From the IMG/VR virus record IMGVR_UViG_3300048502_000015, positions 32,001 through 96,000 of that record: DNA of 64,000 bases, one strand, 5' to 3'. The position numbers were made by a program, and so were the translations under genes. Below are positions 16,986 through 32,263 of the stretch, piece after piece. Numbering within the stretch: position 1 is the first letter of the stretch; each line of letters begins with the position of its first letter. Under the pieces are notes generated by a model. It was not told the origin of the DNA, did no database searches, and worked only from the letters and a program-made list of their open reading frames with translations. This stretch comes from a virus (taxonomy: Duplodnaviria; Caudoviricetes).

Positions 16986-17966
16986 CTACACTTGCTGCTT
17001 ATGTGCTCTGCGGGTCACAATGACGTTGATCAAATCCTGGTGATTCGGAACAACGTCCAAATCCCAGTCAAGATCAAACCACTTAACCTCGGCAATGTCA
17101 TCTCCTGGCTTAGGAGTCCCGAACATATGCTTGGCCTCGAAGAGCAGAGTCTTGATAACTCTATCTGGCTCTTTGCGATAGCGCCAATCATCGATTAGGT
17201 AGCTCCCGACATAGACCGGATCAGTAATCTCGATCCCGGCTTCCTCTGAAACCTCTCTGCGGGCATCTGCCTCGTAGCTAGGACTCTTAGGATCGGAGAA
17301 CCCTCCGATCAGTCGGAACTTCTTCTCATTGGCTTTGCGGCCTAGAAGGATCTTGCTTCCGTCCTCGTTGAGGATGGCAACATCGACTGTTGCAAAGCAT
17401 TGAGGAAACTGGCTGAATGCAGCCCAGACAACGCCTGCGCGGAAATCCGGAGTCCCTCGAACGCTTGTGCGAGAAACCTCTTTGCGGATTTCGCTTCCCG
17501 AAACAAAGACCTGAGATTCAAGCTCTTCGCTGGGATGCTTTCCCGAATAATGAGAGATGAATGAGTCGCGTCCTCCATAGAGAAGAACGGTCTGATTCGG
17601 GGTAATCACATCATCGATTTGAGTATCGAGATTGCGGCTCCAAACTTCATCGTCGGGCTGGTCCTTGATGTAAAGGACGTTCACATGAGGGAACTTGGCA
17701 AGGATCATCTGCTTGCGTCCCTCGAAGTCCAAAGGATTCTCTCGGGTGACCATCAAAGGCGACAAGCCAAGAAAGATGATTACTTTTCCATGGCGGTCAC
17801 AAACGGTCTGAATAAGTTCCATATGAGCATCATGTAGCTCGGGAACCTGAAAACGGCCTACGATTACACCGACATCCTGGCTGTTAGCTCTGGCGCGATC
17901 TCTAGATGCACCTTTGCTAAGCTTCAAGTTTCTTTCAAACTCTGTGTATTCTGCTGGATATGTCAT
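16986..17966 (-). CDS. natV: bifunctional NMN adenylyltransferase / Nudix hydrolase
   Basis: VGRFQVPELHDAH (HxxH), SGSEIR, Nudix box GG...ARREVSEEAG. Confidence 0.9.
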   Translation of the reverse strand: MTYPAEYTEFERNLKLSKGASRDRARANSQDVGVIVGRFQVPELHDAHMELIQTVCDRHGKVIIFLGLSPLMVTRENPLDFEGRKQMILAKFPHVNVLYIKDQPDDEVWSRNLDTQIDDVITPNQTVLLYGGRDSFISHYSGKHPSEELESQVFVSGSEIRKEVSRTSVRGTPDFRAGVVWAAFSQFPQCFATVDVAILNEDGSKILLGRKANEKKFRLIGGFSDPKSPSYEADARREVSEEAGIEITDPVYVGSYLIDDWRYRKEPDRVIKTLLFEAKHMFGTPKPGDDIAEVKWFDLDWDLDVVPNHQDLINVIVTRRAHKQQV

Positions 17967-18013
17967 TTTCTTCCTTTCAATTCCATCAATAACGAATTGT
18001 TTGGTTTATAAAG

Positions 18014-18089
18014 TACCAGTAGGGGGAGTCGAACCCAACCTCACTCTTGTTTAAAAGACAAGTGCCCAGTCCACACGGGCGCTACTGGC
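18014..18089 (-). tRNA. tRNA-Lys(TTT)
   Basis: CTTGT-CT-TTT-AA-ACAAG. Confidence 0.88.
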
Positions 18090-18092
18090 AAG

Positions 18093-18176
18093 CTAATGAA
18101 CTCCTGCTGCTACAAGAACGGCTACAACGTAGCCTATCAAGATAAACAACAAAAGCGCAATCAATTTATAGTTCAT
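18093..18176 (-). CDS. 27-aa single-TM peptide, leaderless
   Basis: MNYKLIALLLFILIGYVVAVLVAAGVH*; TGATATAAT-6nt-ATG. Confidence 0.6.
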   Translation of the reverse strand: MNYKLIALLLFILIGYVVAVLVAAGVH

Positions 18177-18200
18177 AACTACATTATATCACAGTTTAAG

Positions 18201-18272
18201 TACGCCCACGAGGATTTGAACCCCGATGTGCTGGGAATAAGCCAGATGTTCTAACCGTTGAACTATGGGCGC
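18201..18272 (-). tRNA. tRNA-Ile(TAT)
   Basis: CTGG-CT-TAT-TC-CCAG; T at position 37. Confidence 0.75.
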
Positions 18273-18277
18273 AAGAG

Positions 18278-18349
18278 GGTGACTGATGGGAAATGACCCC
18301 ATACCAACCGGCTTCACAGGCCAGGACTCTACATTAAGCTACAGCCACC
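18278..18349 (-). tRNA. tRNA-His(GTG)
   Basis: G-1:C73; CTGGC-CT-GTG-AA-GCCGG; atypical T loop GTCATTT. Confidence 0.85.
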
Positions 18350-18496
18350 ATGATTACTACAAACCGCTGCCGAGTCGCCACTGTCCGTTCCTAACTCCTG
18401 CTCTCGGCCAGTATCCCGTTCATCGGATACTCTCATCCACGAGACTTAAATCGTCTACCTATTAAAATGCCTTTACCGTTTATAATTAGTAGAAAG

Positions 18497-18583
18497 TAGC
18501 GGTAGAGAGGATCGAACTCTCAATTCCCTTACGGGACAACGATTTTTAAGACCGTCCTGTATACCTAATTCCAGCATACCGCC
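18497..18583 (-). tRNA. tRNA-Leu(TAA), long variable arm
   Basis: ACGGT-CT-TAA-AA-ATCGT. Confidence 0.9.
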
Positions 18584-18587
18584 AAAT

Positions 18588-19112
18588 ATGACTAAACCAA
18601 GAAAATACAATGATCCTGATCTAATTGCTGCTGTTAAATCATCAACTTCAATTGCACAAGTCTTGAATCAACTGGGACTTAAACCTGCGGGAGGTAACTA
18701 TACCACAATCAAGAATCGAACACAAGAACTTGGCTTAGATACCTCTCATTGGAGGGGTCAAGCTTGGAACAAGGGGTTAAAGGTTCCTGGTTATACCAAA
18801 CGTAATCTACAGGATATCCTAGTCGAAAATAGTCCACATAAGCAAAGTCACGGTTTGAAAATTCGCCTCATTAACGAGGGTTTACTCGAAGAAATTTGTG
18901 ATGAATGTTCAATTACTAACTGGATGAATCGGCCACTATCCTTTCATTTGGAACATATTAACGGTGTTCATAGCGATAACCGTCTTCCCAATCTACGGCT
19001 TCTATGTCCTAACTGTCATTCACAGACGCCTACCTATTGTGGCCGAAATATTGGCAAAGCCGAATCCCTCTGCCATTGGGTAGATGCCCTTGGTGCTAAA
19101 TTTCTCTCTTGA
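18588..19112 (+). CDS. HNH homing endonuclease
   Basis: CDEC...LEHINGVHSDNRLPNLRLLCPNCHSQT; antisense to tRNA operon. Confidence 0.9.
   Translation: MTKPRKYNDPDLIAAVKSSTSIAQVLNQLGLKPAGGNYTTIKNRTQELGLDTSHWRGQAWNKGLKVPGYTKRNLQDILVENSPHKQSHGLKIRLINEGLLEEICDECSITNWMNRPLSFHLEHINGVHSDNRLPNLRLLCPNCHSQTPTYCGRNIGKAESLCHWVDALGAKFLS
19057..19089 (-). pseudogene. 5' half of a short-arm-type tRNA-Leu truncated in the anticodon
   Basis: GGGCATCTACCCAATGGCAGAGGGATTCGGCTT; D loop resembles that of tRNA-Leu(TAG) at 26446. Confidence 0.65.
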
Positions 19113-19302
19113 TCGTCAAGCAGGGACCAGAACTATATTGATCGTAGCTAACCGATCTAGCCTTTACAACATAACGTTTACCGTCGATGTCAAAGGAAAT
19201 CCAAGTTGGCTCGTAGCCACAATTATCAGAAACGCCGACAATCGTTGCGGTCTTTCCTTCGAGTCCTACAAACTCGTTCTTCTTGACTGTTTCAAATTCC
19301 AT
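19096..19302 (-). CDS. small hypothetical protein, leaderless
   Basis: TGATATACT-6nt-ATG. Confidence 0.6.
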   Translation of the reverse strand: MEFETVKKNEFVGLEGKTATIVGVSDNCGYEPTWISFDIDGKRYVVKARSVSYDQYSSGPCLTIKREI

Positions 19303-19326
19303 AACTACAGTATATCATACTTCAGG

Positions 19327-19686
19327 CTAACCAAGGGCCTCTTCGATAACTTTCCAATCTTCGTCTGTTCCGTATGCTATCGGATTATCTTCGGTAAAGA
19401 CTTCGGGAATTGCATTTGGACTCACTATGATATAGAAATCATTGGGATAATCAAGTTGATTGGTCGCCTCTTTTGGCGTTGTAATTCCCTGTTCTACATG
19501 GGCGTTTACTGCATGACGCAATCCGCGTTCCGAAGCCGGAACGACTATGACGGGAGAAAATTGGTGAAGTAGTACTACTCGCTCATCCCGAAAATCTGCG
19601 GCAGTAATTTCTGATGCCTTCAGTAGACCGATTACCTGTTCTCTTTCTTTTTCGGAAAGAGCATATCTCTTTACTATTTCTCCCAT
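19327..19686 (-). CDS. hypothetical protein
   Basis: 119 aa; SD AAAGGA. Confidence 0.6.
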   Translation of the reverse strand: MGEIVKRYALSEKEREQVIGLLKASEITAADFRDERVVLLHQFSPVIVVPASERGLRHAVNAHVEQGITTPKEATNQLDYPNDFYIIVSPNAIPEVFTEDNPIAYGTDEDWKVIEEALG

Positions 19687-19710
19687 ATCTTTCCTTTAGG
19701 TTGTACTTAG

Positions 19711-19784
19711 CTGCGGGGAAGAGAATCGAACTCCTGATGGCTACGGTTCAAAGCCGCAGTTGCGATGCCAGCACACACCCCGCA
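19711..19784 (-). tRNA. tRNA-Gln(TTG)
   Basis: TGCGG-CT-TTG-AA-CCGTA; T1-A72, G73. Confidence 0.85.
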
Positions 19785-19885
19785 ATAAGGCGGGTTCTCA
19801 CCGCACATGCGCCATATCGTAGATGGCCCGTCTATAGACCCTTTAATTCTATAGTCGCCAAGTATCCCCTTGGTGGTCACTTAAG

Positions 19886-20533: not shown

Positions 20534-20607
20534 TACCACCAGAGGGATTTGAACCCTCGATATCTTGCTTGAAAGGCAAGCGAATTAGACCGCTATTCTA
20601 TGATGGC
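20534..20607 (-). tRNA. tRNA-Glu(TTC)
   Basis: CTTGC-CT-TTC-AA-GCAAG. Confidence 0.9.
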
Positions 20608-20790
20608 GTGTGTACGCTCTCTGTGACAATTTGCGCATACAAGATCACATTTGGCTATTTCGGCCAAAACAGACCTTAGAGAACGTCCGTTTGTAATCAA
20701 TTGAGAAATATTATTATCCTTTTGTGAGGGATCTAAATGATGAAAATCGGTGACATAGTAGCGAAATTGCCTGATTCCTCCGCTGGCCAA
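20593..20790 (-). pseudogene. N-terminally truncated HNH endonuclease
   Basis: DFHHLDP...EIAKCDLVCANCHRERT present; upstream CxxC absent; stop codon lies inside tRNA-Glu. Confidence 0.65.
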
Positions 20791-20942
20791 TTCGGAAGTG
20801 GTCCTCGATTTGAATCGTCATAAAAGCTATCCTGAAGGTCCTCTTCAAGTTCAAGAACTCGATCAAGGGCTTCAAGCAGAAGACCAACTATTTCACCGAA
20901 CGAGAACCGTTCTTCGTAATATTCTCTAGTGTGTCGTTCCAT
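20733..20942 (-). CDS. small acidic hypothetical protein, leaderless
   Basis: TGCTATACT-6nt-ATG (MERHTREYY...). Confidence 0.55.
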   Translation of the reverse strand: MERHTREYYEERFSFGEIVGLLLEALDRVLELEEDLQDSFYDDSNRGPLPNWPAEESGNFATMSPIFII

Positions 20943-21049
20943 AACTACAGTATAGCAGAACTTCAAAATTCGTGCAACACCTTAACCACCTGAACGTTGG
21001 CCCAATTCGGCAAAGAACTTAGGGCCAGTAGTCTAGGGCGTTACACAAG

Positions 21050-24077: not shown

Positions 24078-24457
24078 AAGAATCCAAAGAGAGTCTGCGT
24101 TCACATCAAATAACTTTCAGAGCTACTGTCTTCCTGCCGGTCAAGTAGGTGGTTATTTGGCTGACTGTCACTCGGGACCTAGATCTTTGAGTCCTGTTTC
24201 TTTGGGTAAGAGTCCCCTTAAGGTATTACGTTGCCCCGCCTCTACCGGGGTCGCAAGGGGATAAGATTACGAGCGGTCACCAGCCATTGGAGGAATCGAA
24301 CCTCTCTACTCTAGGTGTACCATTATAAACAAGAATCGAACTTGACACCGTTAGGTTAAACTGTAGTCTAGATGCCTACACGGGTTCCCCGTTTACCGTA
24401 GTTGCTTGCGGTCTTAGCGCTAAGGAACCAAATTTGGTACATGGACCTACAGTTAAG

Positions 24458-24529
24458 CGACCCCATGGGGACTCGAACCCCAACTTCAACTTCGACAGAG
24501 TAGTGTGATGACCTTTTCACTATAGGGCC
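24458..24529 (-). tRNA. tRNA-Asp(GTC), intact
   Basis: CTACT-CT-GTC-GA-AGTTG; G73. Confidence 0.85.
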
Positions 24530-24581
24530 ATTAAATGAACCCCTACCGTCGCATAATGTATGAAACGATAAGGATGCAATA

Positions 24582-25253
24582 ATGAAATTACAACAACGAA
24601 CAGAAGCCCGTCATTTACGACAAGATTATGGTTGGTCTATTAAACAAATAGCCCAAAACCTCAATGTATCTCCCAGTTCAGTTAGTACCTGGACTAGAGA
24701 CATTGTTCTTACACCCGAACAACAGAAAAATTTGGATCTAAAAAATCCAGCATTGAATCCCACCGGAACAAACACAAATACCAAATTCTTTCGAGATAAA
24801 CGAAAGATATCACAAAACATCGGAGCCTCCCAAATCGGGAACCCCGAGTTTGCTGCTGGTTGTTGTCTGTATTGGGGAGAAGGATCTAAAAATCGTAATT
24901 CTGTTAGTATTACTAATACAGATACGAATCTTTTAGTCTTCTTTTTGCAATTTATACGAAATCACTTCGTCATTGACGATAATGAGATTCACGTAACCGT
25001 TTCCTATCATGTCGATAATGGATTCGATAAAGATACCGTCGAAGGATTTTGGTTACAAGCATTAAATCTACCCAAATCCTGTTTAAGAAAACCCATTCTA
25101 GATAGTCGATCTCGTTCGGCCACTAAAGCCCCAAATAAAAAGTATCCCTTTGGGTGTTGTCGAATTGAAATAGGTCGCACAGATATTATCCAAGCCATTT
25201 ATGGTGGTATTCAAGCACTTGGGGGATTTACAAAAACCGAATGGTTAGATTGA
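24582..25253 (+). CDS. HTH + LAGLIDADG-like homing endonuclease
   Basis: N-terminal HTH (SIKQIAQNLNVSPSSVSTW); LYWGEGSK...ITNTD; AT-rich; antisense to tRNA operon. Confidence 0.8.
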   Translation: MKLQQRTEARHLRQDYGWSIKQIAQNLNVSPSSVSTWTRDIVLTPEQQKNLDLKNPALNPTGTNTNTKFFRDKRKISQNIGASQIGNPEFAAGCCLYWGEGSKNRNSVSITNTDTNLLVFFLQFIRNHFVIDDNEIHVTVSYHVDNGFDKDTVEGFWLQALNLPKSCLRKPILDSRSRSATKAPNKKYPFGCCRIEIGRTDIIQAIYGGIQALGGFTKTEWLD

Positions 25254-25288
25254 CAGGGTAGCGCTTTAAGCCACTAAGCTACAACTCC
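25251..25288 (-). pseudogene. 5' half of tRNA-Asp(GTC) truncated after position 37
   Basis: GGAGTTGTAGCTTAGTGGCTTAAAGCGCTACCCTGTCA. Confidence 0.85.
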
Positions 25289-25438: not shown

Positions 25439-25624
25439 CTACCGAATTACAAAACGTCCCTGTCCAATGTGGCGGCGAGAACACTCCCTCTTCAAACCTC
25501 TAAGAAGTTTGTTCTTTTCGTCACTCATAGAGCCAAATCCGGATGAATAAAGCGCTGAAGTTAGAGAAAGAATTTCCTCGTCCGAGAAGACCGACCAACG
25601 AATCTTATTTGGAGTTTTGTTCAT
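25439..25624 (-). CDS. small hypothetical protein, leaderless
   Basis: TGATATACT-6nt-ATG. Confidence 0.6.
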   Translation of the reverse strand: MNKTPNKIRWSVFSDEEILSLTSALYSSGFGSMSDEKNKLLRGLKRECSRRHIGQGRFVIR

Positions 25625-25729
25625 AACTATAGTATATCACATAAATAGGCTCGCAAGGGGAATCAAAACCTATCGGAGCGCTCCCCAGCGCGGTTTAGAT
25701 AAGGATTTATATGATCGTTTGTCCGCCTA

Positions 25730-26322: not shown

Positions 26323-26445
26323 AGACACCTGGGAAGATTGGTATCCCAGGCTTACTATCCAATGTATATTTAACGATTGGCCAATCACCGACCGACAGAG
26401 CAGGGCTAGACCCCTCTGTGATGCATGGCCTCTTCTAGCGAGGAG

Positions 26446-26519
26446 TGCCTCTCCTGGGACTCGAACCCAGACTGATACGCTTCTAAGGCGTAGTCCTCTA
26501 CCAATTGGGATAGAGAGGC
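26446..26519 (-). tRNA. tRNA-Leu(TAG), short variable loop
   Basis: TACGC-CT-TAG-AA-GCGTA; no long variable arm (a form known from actinobacterial tRNA-Leu). Confidence 0.88.
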
Positions 26520-31927: not shown

Positions 31928-32263
31928 TTATCTTCCTTGTTAAAAATTTTCTGATGCTCGTGGGTATTACCCTCCAGAGTTAATCATCCATATAGGAGGC
32001 AACCTAGCTTGTTGGGTTGTCCTAAATTCATCATAGCAAACCATACCCAAAATACCGCCCTTGACAAAATATTCTCGTGTGATATATCGCGCGTGCGCGC
32101 GTATGATTATTCTTAAATAAGAAGAAACTACCTACAAATACACGAATAACTATACTAATGAATTAACTAAAATGTGTTACAAAATAGTGCCTAAATATTG
32201 GGCTAATATTTACGCTACGTGCGGGTATTATGGCAATCCAAAATGGTATGCTAAGATGTCAAT

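Follow-up and report, generated by a model that had tools for sequence, protein, structure and literature searches.

We analysed a 64,000-nucleotide (nt) stretch of DNA, here called the window, which spans positions 32,001 to 96,000 of the 160-kb single-contig virus record IMGVR_UViG_3300048502_000015 (Duplodnaviria; Caudoviricetes). In this window, an open reading frame (ORF) for an HNH nuclease lies between the broken 5' half of one tRNA-Leu gene and an intact tRNA-Leu(UAA) gene. We think that this Leu locus is probably a degraded cut-and-rescue homing cassette, and give this reading a probability of about 0.7: a free-standing HNH gene and a linked intact tRNA-Leu(UAA) gene would sit together in a former tRNA-Leu gene of the short-variable-arm type. 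The evidence comes from the locus itself, from complete nested versions in other viral loci, from a second cassette in the same tRNA array, and from the association of the HNH family with tRNA-Leu(UAA).

An HNH gene between a broken and an intact tRNA-Leu gene

By ARAGORN, the minus strand of the window holds an array of 35 tRNA genes and a transfer-messenger RNA (tmRNA) gene from 11.7 to 27.7 kb, and the Leu locus lies inside this array. Read along the minus strand, the locus consists of a promoter-like motif (19317-19300), a 68-amino acid (aa) ORF (19302-19096), 6 nt, the broken tRNA 5' half (hereafter the relic, 19089-19057), the antisense HNH gene, 4 nt, and the intact tRNA-Leu(UAA) gene. 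A 147-nt spacer (18349-18495) and then tRNA-His and tRNA-Ile follow. The intact tRNA-Leu(UAA) (18496-18583, minus strand, ARAGORN) is 88 nt long, has a long variable arm and the loop CTTAAAA, and scores 47.6 bits against the Rfam tRNA model RF00005 (18497-18583). We refer to it as the cassette's inner (spare) tRNA; it is presumably charged with leucine. The 4 nt between its 5' end and the HNH ATG (AAAT, 18584-18587) leave no room for a separate HNH promoter or Shine-Dalgarno sequence outside the tRNA gene.

The HNH ORF (18588-19112, plus strand) encodes 174 aa and runs antisense to the tRNA array. The family phrog_10822, annotated as 'HNH endonuclease', matches residues 2-157 with an E-value of 2.4e-51. 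The Pfam models stayed below threshold (HNH_3 16.7 bits, cut-off 24.8; HNH 16.1 bits, cut-off 21.4), and PF13392 is present in many homologues of the protein. Its N-terminal part is helical and resembles a helix-turn-helix (HTH) DNA-binding region; its C-terminal part is a CxxC...H-N-H...CxxC core. Across 16 aligned homologues C104/C107, H123, N131/N135, C140/C143 and H144 are invariant, with the two CxxC pairs flanking the H-N-H residues. An AlphaFold2 model (mean predicted local distance difference test score, pLDDT, 82.7) places strands at residues 120-123 and 136-139 and a helix at 141-144. Foldseek returned weak best matches in the PDB (E 0.2-2.6), all of them HNH nucleases (McrA, Cap5, the Gme nicking HNH and PacI); neither this search nor a PDB sequence search gave anything informative past generic HNH, and a phage GenBank collection yielded only short HNH matches, in Pseudomonas phages. 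The protein is a predicted nuclease, and its cutting target a putative one.

The conserved body of the protein (residues 1-157, 18588-19058) is delimited by phrog_10822, the homologue alignment and the AlphaFold2 model. In an alignment with 15 homologues, the shared sequence stops at ...TYCGRNIGK, and the codon of its last residue, K157, occupies 19056-19058. The remaining 17 codons and the stop (19059-19112, plus strand) encode a tail, AESLCHWVDALGAKFLS, that has no counterpart in the homologues and is predicted to be disordered (pLDDT <50). In the closest relative, the HNH protein of a 56.5-kb IMG/VR contig (locus L001, 78% identical), the same DNA past the Lys codon is read in a different frame (KSRIPLPLG*) owing to a 1-nt difference. 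The missing counterpart and the frame shift in L001 show that the tail is a read-through of the relic antisense and of 20 further bases, not a protein feature.

The reverse complement of 19057-19089 reads GGGCATC-TA-CCCAATGGCAGAGGG-A-TTCGG-CTT. It has the layout of a tRNA from position 1 to position 32-34: a 7-nt acceptor strand, U8 and A9, a 3-bp D stem, a GG loop, A26, a 5-nt anticodon-stem strand, and C32 U33 U34. Because 19057-19058 also belong to the conserved Lys codon, the unambiguous tRNA part ends at C32/U33. The relic is therefore 31-33 nt long, and its anticodon is not preserved. Its truncation in the anticodon loop falls exactly where the antisense HNH gene begins, the body of the HNH gene ending at tRNA position 32-34; L001 retains this junction.

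We compared the relic with 233 and then 328 tRNAs from related and unrelated loci. The best matches were all short-variable-arm tRNAs with Leu anticodons, headed by the 76-nt tRNA-Leu(UAA) of locus L010, which agrees at 24/27 positions from U8 to U34, anticodon stem and CTT included. Further top matches were the 76-nt tRNA(CAA) of L009 and the window's own 75-nt tRNA(UAG). To control for matches elsewhere in the genome, we compared 363 tRNA 5' halves, taken from loci other than this phage and L001, with both strands of the 160-kb genome after masking the called tRNAs. The relic was the sole site with at least 21 identities (22/24 to positions 11-34 of the short-arm tRNA-Leu(UAA) of L010), and 2 of 3000 random 31-mers from the genome equalled its global alignment score. 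These comparisons show that the relic has tRNA-Leu character and is truncated in the anticodon loop; the lost anticodon would have been UAA.

The initial annotation had proposed an HNH ORF, a Leu-like 5' half and an intact long-arm tRNA-Leu(TAA), and all three are present where it placed them. It was also right in deriving the relic from a short-arm tRNA-Leu, in placing the intact gene 4 nt from the HNH start, and in describing an atypical tail where the HNH frame reads on through the relic. The end that it gave to the 5' half, about position 34, stands as a truncation in the anticodon loop and needs correction in its register, since only the sequence up to C32/U33 is unambiguously tRNA.

Short-loop tRNAs with Leu anticodons are not peculiar to this locus. 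Class-I-like phage tRNAs of 74-77 nt with a 5-nt variable loop, often xCAGT, occur with the anticodons UAA, CAA, UAG, AAG, GAG and CAG, for example at 26445-26519 of the window, in L010 (1320-1395), in L009 (2157-2232) and in many IMG/VR loci. We also considered whether the relic might pair with the intact tRNA's 3' half, the two acting as alternative exons. This was rejected: neither the acceptor strands (GGGCATC versus TACCGCT) nor the anticodon-stem strands are complementary.

Complete nested cassettes and a sister cassette at tRNA-Asp

Complete versions of the arrangement are found elsewhere. In L010, a 33-nt 5' half of a long-arm tRNA-Leu is followed by the HNH gene (sense), an intact 76-nt tRNA-Leu(UAA), 4 nt, and a 3' half starting TAAAC. 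Removal of the 580-nt insert (the HNH gene and the 76-nt tRNA) restores an 88-nt tRNA-Leu(taa) with a fully paired cloverleaf (ARAGORN), and the break lies between U33 and U34. L031 carries its HNH gene antisense, as in the window, and keeps both outer tRNA halves; L076, L079 and L089 are further nested cassettes. In the complete nested cassettes the acceptor strand of the 3' half pairs with the 5' half, and the break is at 33/34. Two other loci have 5' halves upstream of the HNH gene; that of L049 ends at C32-U33, and the end of that of L030 is not placeable. No group I core was found in any of these loci, L010 and L031 included, and a search for empty-site alleles of the outer tRNAs of L010 and L031 found none. 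A candidate rule, that inner and outer tRNAs differ in arm class, was discarded, as L076 has a short-arm tRNA within a short-arm tRNA and L079 and L089 have long within long.

The 3' half of the outer tRNA is absent from the window's 147-nt spacer and present in L010, L031, L076, L079 and L089. The window cassette is therefore a degraded member of this group.

The same array contains a second cassette, at tRNA-Asp (24457-25288). Here a tRNA-Asp(GUC) relic (25288-25252, minus strand) is identical at 37/37 positions to the start of the uninterrupted tRNA-Asp of L001 (L001:11851-11925). The upstream flank is also conserved with L001, and homology stops after A37, where an antisense ORF begins. 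This ORF (24582-25253) encodes 223 aa with an HTH N terminus, and neither Pfam nor PHROGs assigns it to a nuclease family. It is followed by a different, intact tRNA-Asp (24529-24457). The unbroken tRNA-Asp of L001 represents the empty-site allele, which makes the Asp cassette a demonstrable insertion. As far as sequence comparison goes, the insertion of a putative nuclease gene plus a spare tRNA into an anticodon loop is thus documented directly in this array, at the Asp locus.

A family-wide link between the HNH gene and tRNA-Leu(UAA)

We wondered how general this association is. The HNH family comprises 1413 proteins at E <=0.001. We examined 84 loci (80 viral-contig loci were fetched, and L005, L009 and L010 were added) and mapped tRNAs, tRNA-Leu fragments and intron motifs around the HNH gene. 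An intact tRNA-Leu(UAA) lies within 150 nt of the HNH gene in 49/84 loci. In another arrangement (14/84), a group I intron interrupts the anticodon loop of tRNA-Leu(UAA) and the HNH gene lies within this split gene, and in 8/84 loci an intron-bearing tRNA-Leu(UAA) directly adjoins it. In all, the HNH gene is tied to tRNA-Leu(UAA), in either orientation, in 71/84 loci (85%), although only 54 of the 404 tRNAs mapped there are tRNA-Leu(UAA).

ARAGORN in intron mode recovered a split tRNA-Leu(taa) around the HNH gene in 11 loci. The Rfam model Intron_gpI scored 69.3 bits in L025 and 62.1 bits in L021, and the exon-intron borders are canonical (CTT|...G|AAAA). Two pieces of the L025 intron are homologous to the sequences on either side of the HNH ORF, which is in sense in L020 and antisense in L071, L090, L050 and L032.

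Uncultured phages carry the cyanobacterial type of tRNA-Leu(UAA) group I intron. The HNH gene lies within it in sense in L020, L017, L026, L039, L081 and L088, antisense in L043, L047, L050, L071, L090, L032 and L084, and just downstream of an intron-bearing tRNA-Leu in L021, L025, L040-42, L051 and L070. In L020 (sense) and in L071, L090 and L050 (antisense), where BLAST recovers both pieces, the ORF's insertion point within the intron is about the same; in L039 and L017 it is nearer the intron 5' end.

A maximum-likelihood tree of the HNH proteins implies at least 30 switches in how the HNH gene is arranged relative to the tRNA. Near-identical nucleases adjoin tRNA-Leu genes with or without an intron (for example L070/L075 and L051/L033). 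So many changes point to repeated movement that always ends beside tRNA-Leu(UAA). This family pattern, as read from sequence, is the one expected for a homing endonuclease that would target the tRNA-Leu(UAA) gene. Our literature searches found no description of one HNH family both in a tRNA-Leu(UAA) intron and in intron-free cassettes.

Taken together, these results bear on two suggestions of the initial annotation, that the Leu and Asp loci share an architecture and that both reflect a general strategy. The Asp locus does have the same parts (a tRNA-Asp relic matching at 37/37, an antisense ORF and a different intact tRNA-Asp), and a general strategy is supported by the 71 linked loci, by the complete nested versions and by the Asp empty allele of L001.

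The tRNA-Leu/HNH pair in close relatives

On the HNH tree, the window groups with L001, L005 and L009 in a clade that has 99% support. Each of the four has a long-arm tRNA-Leu(UAA) whose 5' end is 4-11 nt away from the HNH start, and the two genes are divergent. The far side of the HNH gene differs: the window has the relic, L001 has the relic without its acceptor part, in L005 a tRNA-Pro abuts the stop codon, and in L009 a tRNA-His lies 16 nt beyond. In L009 the tRNA-Leu/HNH pair lies between tRNA-His and tRNA-Ile, not upstream of tRNA-His. Its position on the other side of tRNA-His suggests that the pair moves as a unit.

About 31 nt past the inner tRNA of L009 we read, by eye, TAAA, a 5-nt stem strand, a TCAGT variable loop, a T arm and an acceptor strand; of this short-arm 3' half, BLAST backs only the T-arm part (positions 45-66 of a short-arm tRNA-Leu). 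The pair thus behaves as one unit placed in different short-arm tRNA-Leu genes or slots, with the window holding an outer 5' half and L009 a 3' half. These two halves do not pair with each other and are therefore not halves of one gene.

The spacer past the inner tRNA-Leu of L005 holds a further element (L005:2403-2491, minus strand), which folds like a tRNA: its acceptor is paired, a hairpin replaces the D arm, the 'anticodon' hairpin has 7 bp and a 5-nt loop, and TCAGT and a T arm are present. This element may be a reshaped remainder of the outer short-arm tRNA or an anticodon-less tRNA mimic.

Comparison with L001 also revealed two blocks without substitutions. A stretch of 23-24 nt in the relic (19059-19082) and a 59-nt block (19262-19320) show zero substitutions against L001:6472-6553, and the HNH DNA is 68-80% identical. 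In L001 a 187-nt deletion between the conserved blocks has removed the acceptor strand of the relic and most of the 68-aa ORF. The conserved blocks could be a recombination arm, have a regulatory role, or stem from a recent exchange. The 59-nt block, 100% identical in L001, holds the promoter-like motif and the start of the 68-aa ORF; identity elsewhere is 60-80%.

A model for the Leu locus and its alternatives

How might the locus have arisen? In our preferred reading, where we infer both homing and the order of events, a nuclease from a cassette-bearing phage would, in a co-infection, cut tRNA-Leu(UAA) genes that lack the cassette, either within the anticodon loop or beside it. The break would then be repaired by recombination, which would copy in the nuclease gene and the linked tRNA, splitting the resident tRNA-Leu gene at about position 33/34. 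The carried tRNA would preserve UUA/UUG decoding, as splicing does for the intron-borne relatives, and the invasion would thus be harmless. In the window phage, the resident gene would have decayed to the 5' half at 19089-19057, with loss of the 3' half. The Leu cassette would, on this model, have arrived by insertion.

Alternatively, the locus could be a decayed mobile intron, which we consider unlikely. A group I intron with an antisense HNH gene would have lost its ribozyme core and 3' exon, and the intact tRNA-Leu would simply be the next gene of the array. In favour of this idea, members of the HNH family lie antisense inside tRNA-Leu(UAA) introns (L043, L050, L071, L090), where the tRNA strand shows the window's succession of 5' exon, HNH 3' end and HNH start; the tree joins loci of the divergent type to intron-antisense ones (L066/L050, L053/L090); and the end of the relic is no more than 1-2 nt away from U34/A35, the canonical intron site. 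Yet ribozyme sequence is found on neither side of the HNH gene. Rfam returned no match to Intron_gpI or any other ribozyme in 17900-19800, this region has no similarity to the Rfam-validated L025 intron, and no group I core was found in the window, L001, L005 or L009. In the window the HNH gene is embedded in no intron, with neither a ribozyme core nor a 3' exon. Decay would moreover require two deletions, one ending exactly at the HNH stop region and the other 4 nt before the next tRNA. Finally, intron-free complete nested cassettes exist, antisense-HNH L031 among them, and they break at 33/34, not 34/35.

We give similarly little credence to the idea that the parts are unrelated neighbours, namely an ordinary free-standing HNH gene beside an independently decayed pseudo-tRNA, with an intact tRNA-Leu that the nuclease did not bring. 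Phage tRNA arrays are indeed rich in degenerate tRNA-like elements, such as that in the L005 spacer, and in HNH genes, and the missing empty site for the Leu locus (see below) fits this idea as well. Against it, the relic stops precisely where the HNH family body ends, which is also the break position of nested cassettes in other loci; the 85% family linkage to tRNA-Leu(UAA) argues against a random neighbourhood; and the Asp locus shows the same layout in the same array, with an intact allele in L001. That the 31-33 nt are mere HNH 3' flank resembling a tRNA half by chance is very improbable, for although the Rfam tRNA model and the short-arm profile gave no match and the acceptor strand cannot be validated, the relic is the single best tRNA-half match in 160 kb, few random 31-mers score as high, it has the right register and strand, a complementary D arm, and U8, A14, GG and A26 in their proper places, and it is conserved in L001 under a different HNH reading frame.

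Several points weigh against the cut-and-rescue reading. The generic Rfam tRNA model did not detect the relic, even in truncation-aware runs, because it gets too little signal from a 31-nt half whose D stem has 3 bp. An nhmmer profile of 29 short-arm Leu tRNAs did not find the relic in the genome at E <=10 either, because the T arm dominates the profile. Given these misses, the tRNA assignment rests on pairwise similarity to two tRNAs, on layout and on context. The relic is short, and with no 3' half in the spacer its acceptor strand is uncheckable. No Shine-Dalgarno sequence or promoter is evident for the HNH gene. The inner tRNA-Leu shares the CTTAAAA loop with the presumed targets, a difficulty for a carrier that would have to avoid cutting itself; this loop occurs in 42 of the 51 neighbouring tRNA-Leu(UAA) genes examined, with stems that vary freely. 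Finally, no cassette-free Leu allele was found, every relative recovered carrying the HNH gene. The initial annotation had expected nuclease-free relatives: for Asp, L001 provides one, with its tRNA unbroken, and for Leu no single short-arm tRNA-Leu starting GGGCATC was found. Among viral contigs, the exact relic 21-mer occurs only in that of L001. A degenerate relic pattern that included CTTAAAA had no match in viral or metagenome contigs, and a looser pattern gave 4 chance matches in metagenomes, in non-tRNA DNA. Searches for relatives through the flanking 119-aa protein found none, and those through the NUDIX/NMNAT-like protein led to distant phages without shared gene order at the Leu locus.

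Neighbouring sequences

Neither Pfam nor PHROGs matches the 68-aa ORF (19096-19302, minus strand), which stops 6 nt upstream of the relic and marks the former upstream flank of the broken tRNA. A promoter-like motif of the extended -10 type, TGATATACTGTAGTTATG, lies at 19300-19317 (minus strand). It is one of 4 copies in the window of an 18-nt motif, TGATATAMTGTAGTTATG, all on the minus strand (18174-18191, 19300-19317, 20940-20957 and 25622-25639), where 0.01 would be expected. The motif resembles an extended -10 promoter that leads directly into the ATG of a small ORF, and to judge from its sequence and placement the copies are probably internal promoters of the tRNA array. A minus-strand transcript from the putative promoter at 19317 would cross the relic, the antisense HNH gene and tRNA-Leu; the HNH gene, its ATG 4 nt from the tRNA, is thus antisense to a transcript that probably begins at this motif.

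Two other elements of the array deserve mention. A tRNA-Lys(UUU) with an odd D arm (18014-18089, minus strand) scores 32.1 bits with Rfam and was not called by ARAGORN. A 65-aa ORF (20593-20790, minus strand) ends in ...CANCHRERTH, overlaps the 5' side of tRNA-Glu(UUC), and looks like a C-terminal piece of another HNH nuclease.

Comparison with known systems

We also put forward a broader proposal, although we hold it only tentatively and would not give it even odds. One HNH family would have three interchangeable lifestyles at one essential gene (in a self-splicing intron in either orientation, beside the gene, or nested with a spare tRNA), the dead halves would serve as homology arms, and the whole would amount to a natural cut-and-rescue gene drive among phages. 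If this were true, any intact tRNA-Leu gene could, by way of the homology arms, receive a copy of the nuclease gene and its tRNA, two unrelated nucleases (at Leu and Asp) would use this route in the window genome, and the lack of substitutions in the relic between the window and L001 would reflect its role as a homology arm. Irrespective of this, a family found in introns, beside introns and free of introns offers a natural series on how mobile introns and nucleases join or part. Cut-and-rescue cassettes may also explain some of the broken tRNA halves in large phage tRNA arrays.

In the literature we searched, we found no paper describing a nuclease-plus-spare-tRNA cassette. The closest characterised system is SegB of phage T4, a free-standing endonuclease of a tRNA cluster; it recognises a motif in tRNA genes and promotes its own spread and that of the tRNA genes around it (PMC2330249). 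As in the window, a free-standing nuclease gene sits in a phage tRNA cluster with no intron or intein. However, SegB is a GIY-YIG enzyme that targets a T-psi-C stem-loop motif, and its gene is intergenic and splits no tRNA (PMC2330249). The window instead has an HNH gene in the anticodon loop of a broken tRNA gene, with an intact replacement isoacceptor 4 nt away. SegF and MobE are other free-standing endonucleases of 'intron-less homing'.

The classical occupant of the site is the group I intron of cyanobacterial and plastid tRNA-Leu(UAA), which inserts between U34 and A35. Intron-encoded endonucleases aimed at tRNA anticodon regions are exemplified by I-Ssp6803I, from a tRNA-fMet intron. The Leu cassette shares with the tRNA-Leu(UAA) intron its target gene and nearly its site, and members of the HNH family lie within such introns in phages. 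The window differs in that it has no ribozyme, a spare gene takes the place of splicing, and the break is at 32-34 instead of 34/35.

Integrative elements, which rely on an integrase and att sites, also enter tRNA genes and bring along a copy of the tRNA end that they displace. In both cases mobile DNA enters a tRNA gene and brings sequence that keeps the tRNA working. Yet integrative elements rebuild the same gene from a duplicated 3' end, whereas in the window the process would be nuclease-driven, a whole different tRNA is supplied, and dead halves are left behind. A similar contrast can be drawn with 'fractured genes', in which a free-standing homing endonuclease gene reportedly divides a gene and split inteins restore its function. 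There too a homing endonuclease gene lies between the two halves of a broken host gene, but the halves are reunited by protein trans-splicing; in the window the halves are dead and the spare gene does the work.

Homing endonucleases are not known to enter essential genes except within an intron or intein, and otherwise stay intergenic. The window and its more complete relatives point to a third route, in which the nuclease breaks the gene and brings the replacement. Seen beside these systems, the window cassette would be a new variant of intron-less homing, a degraded instance next to a second cassette with an unrelated putative nuclease.

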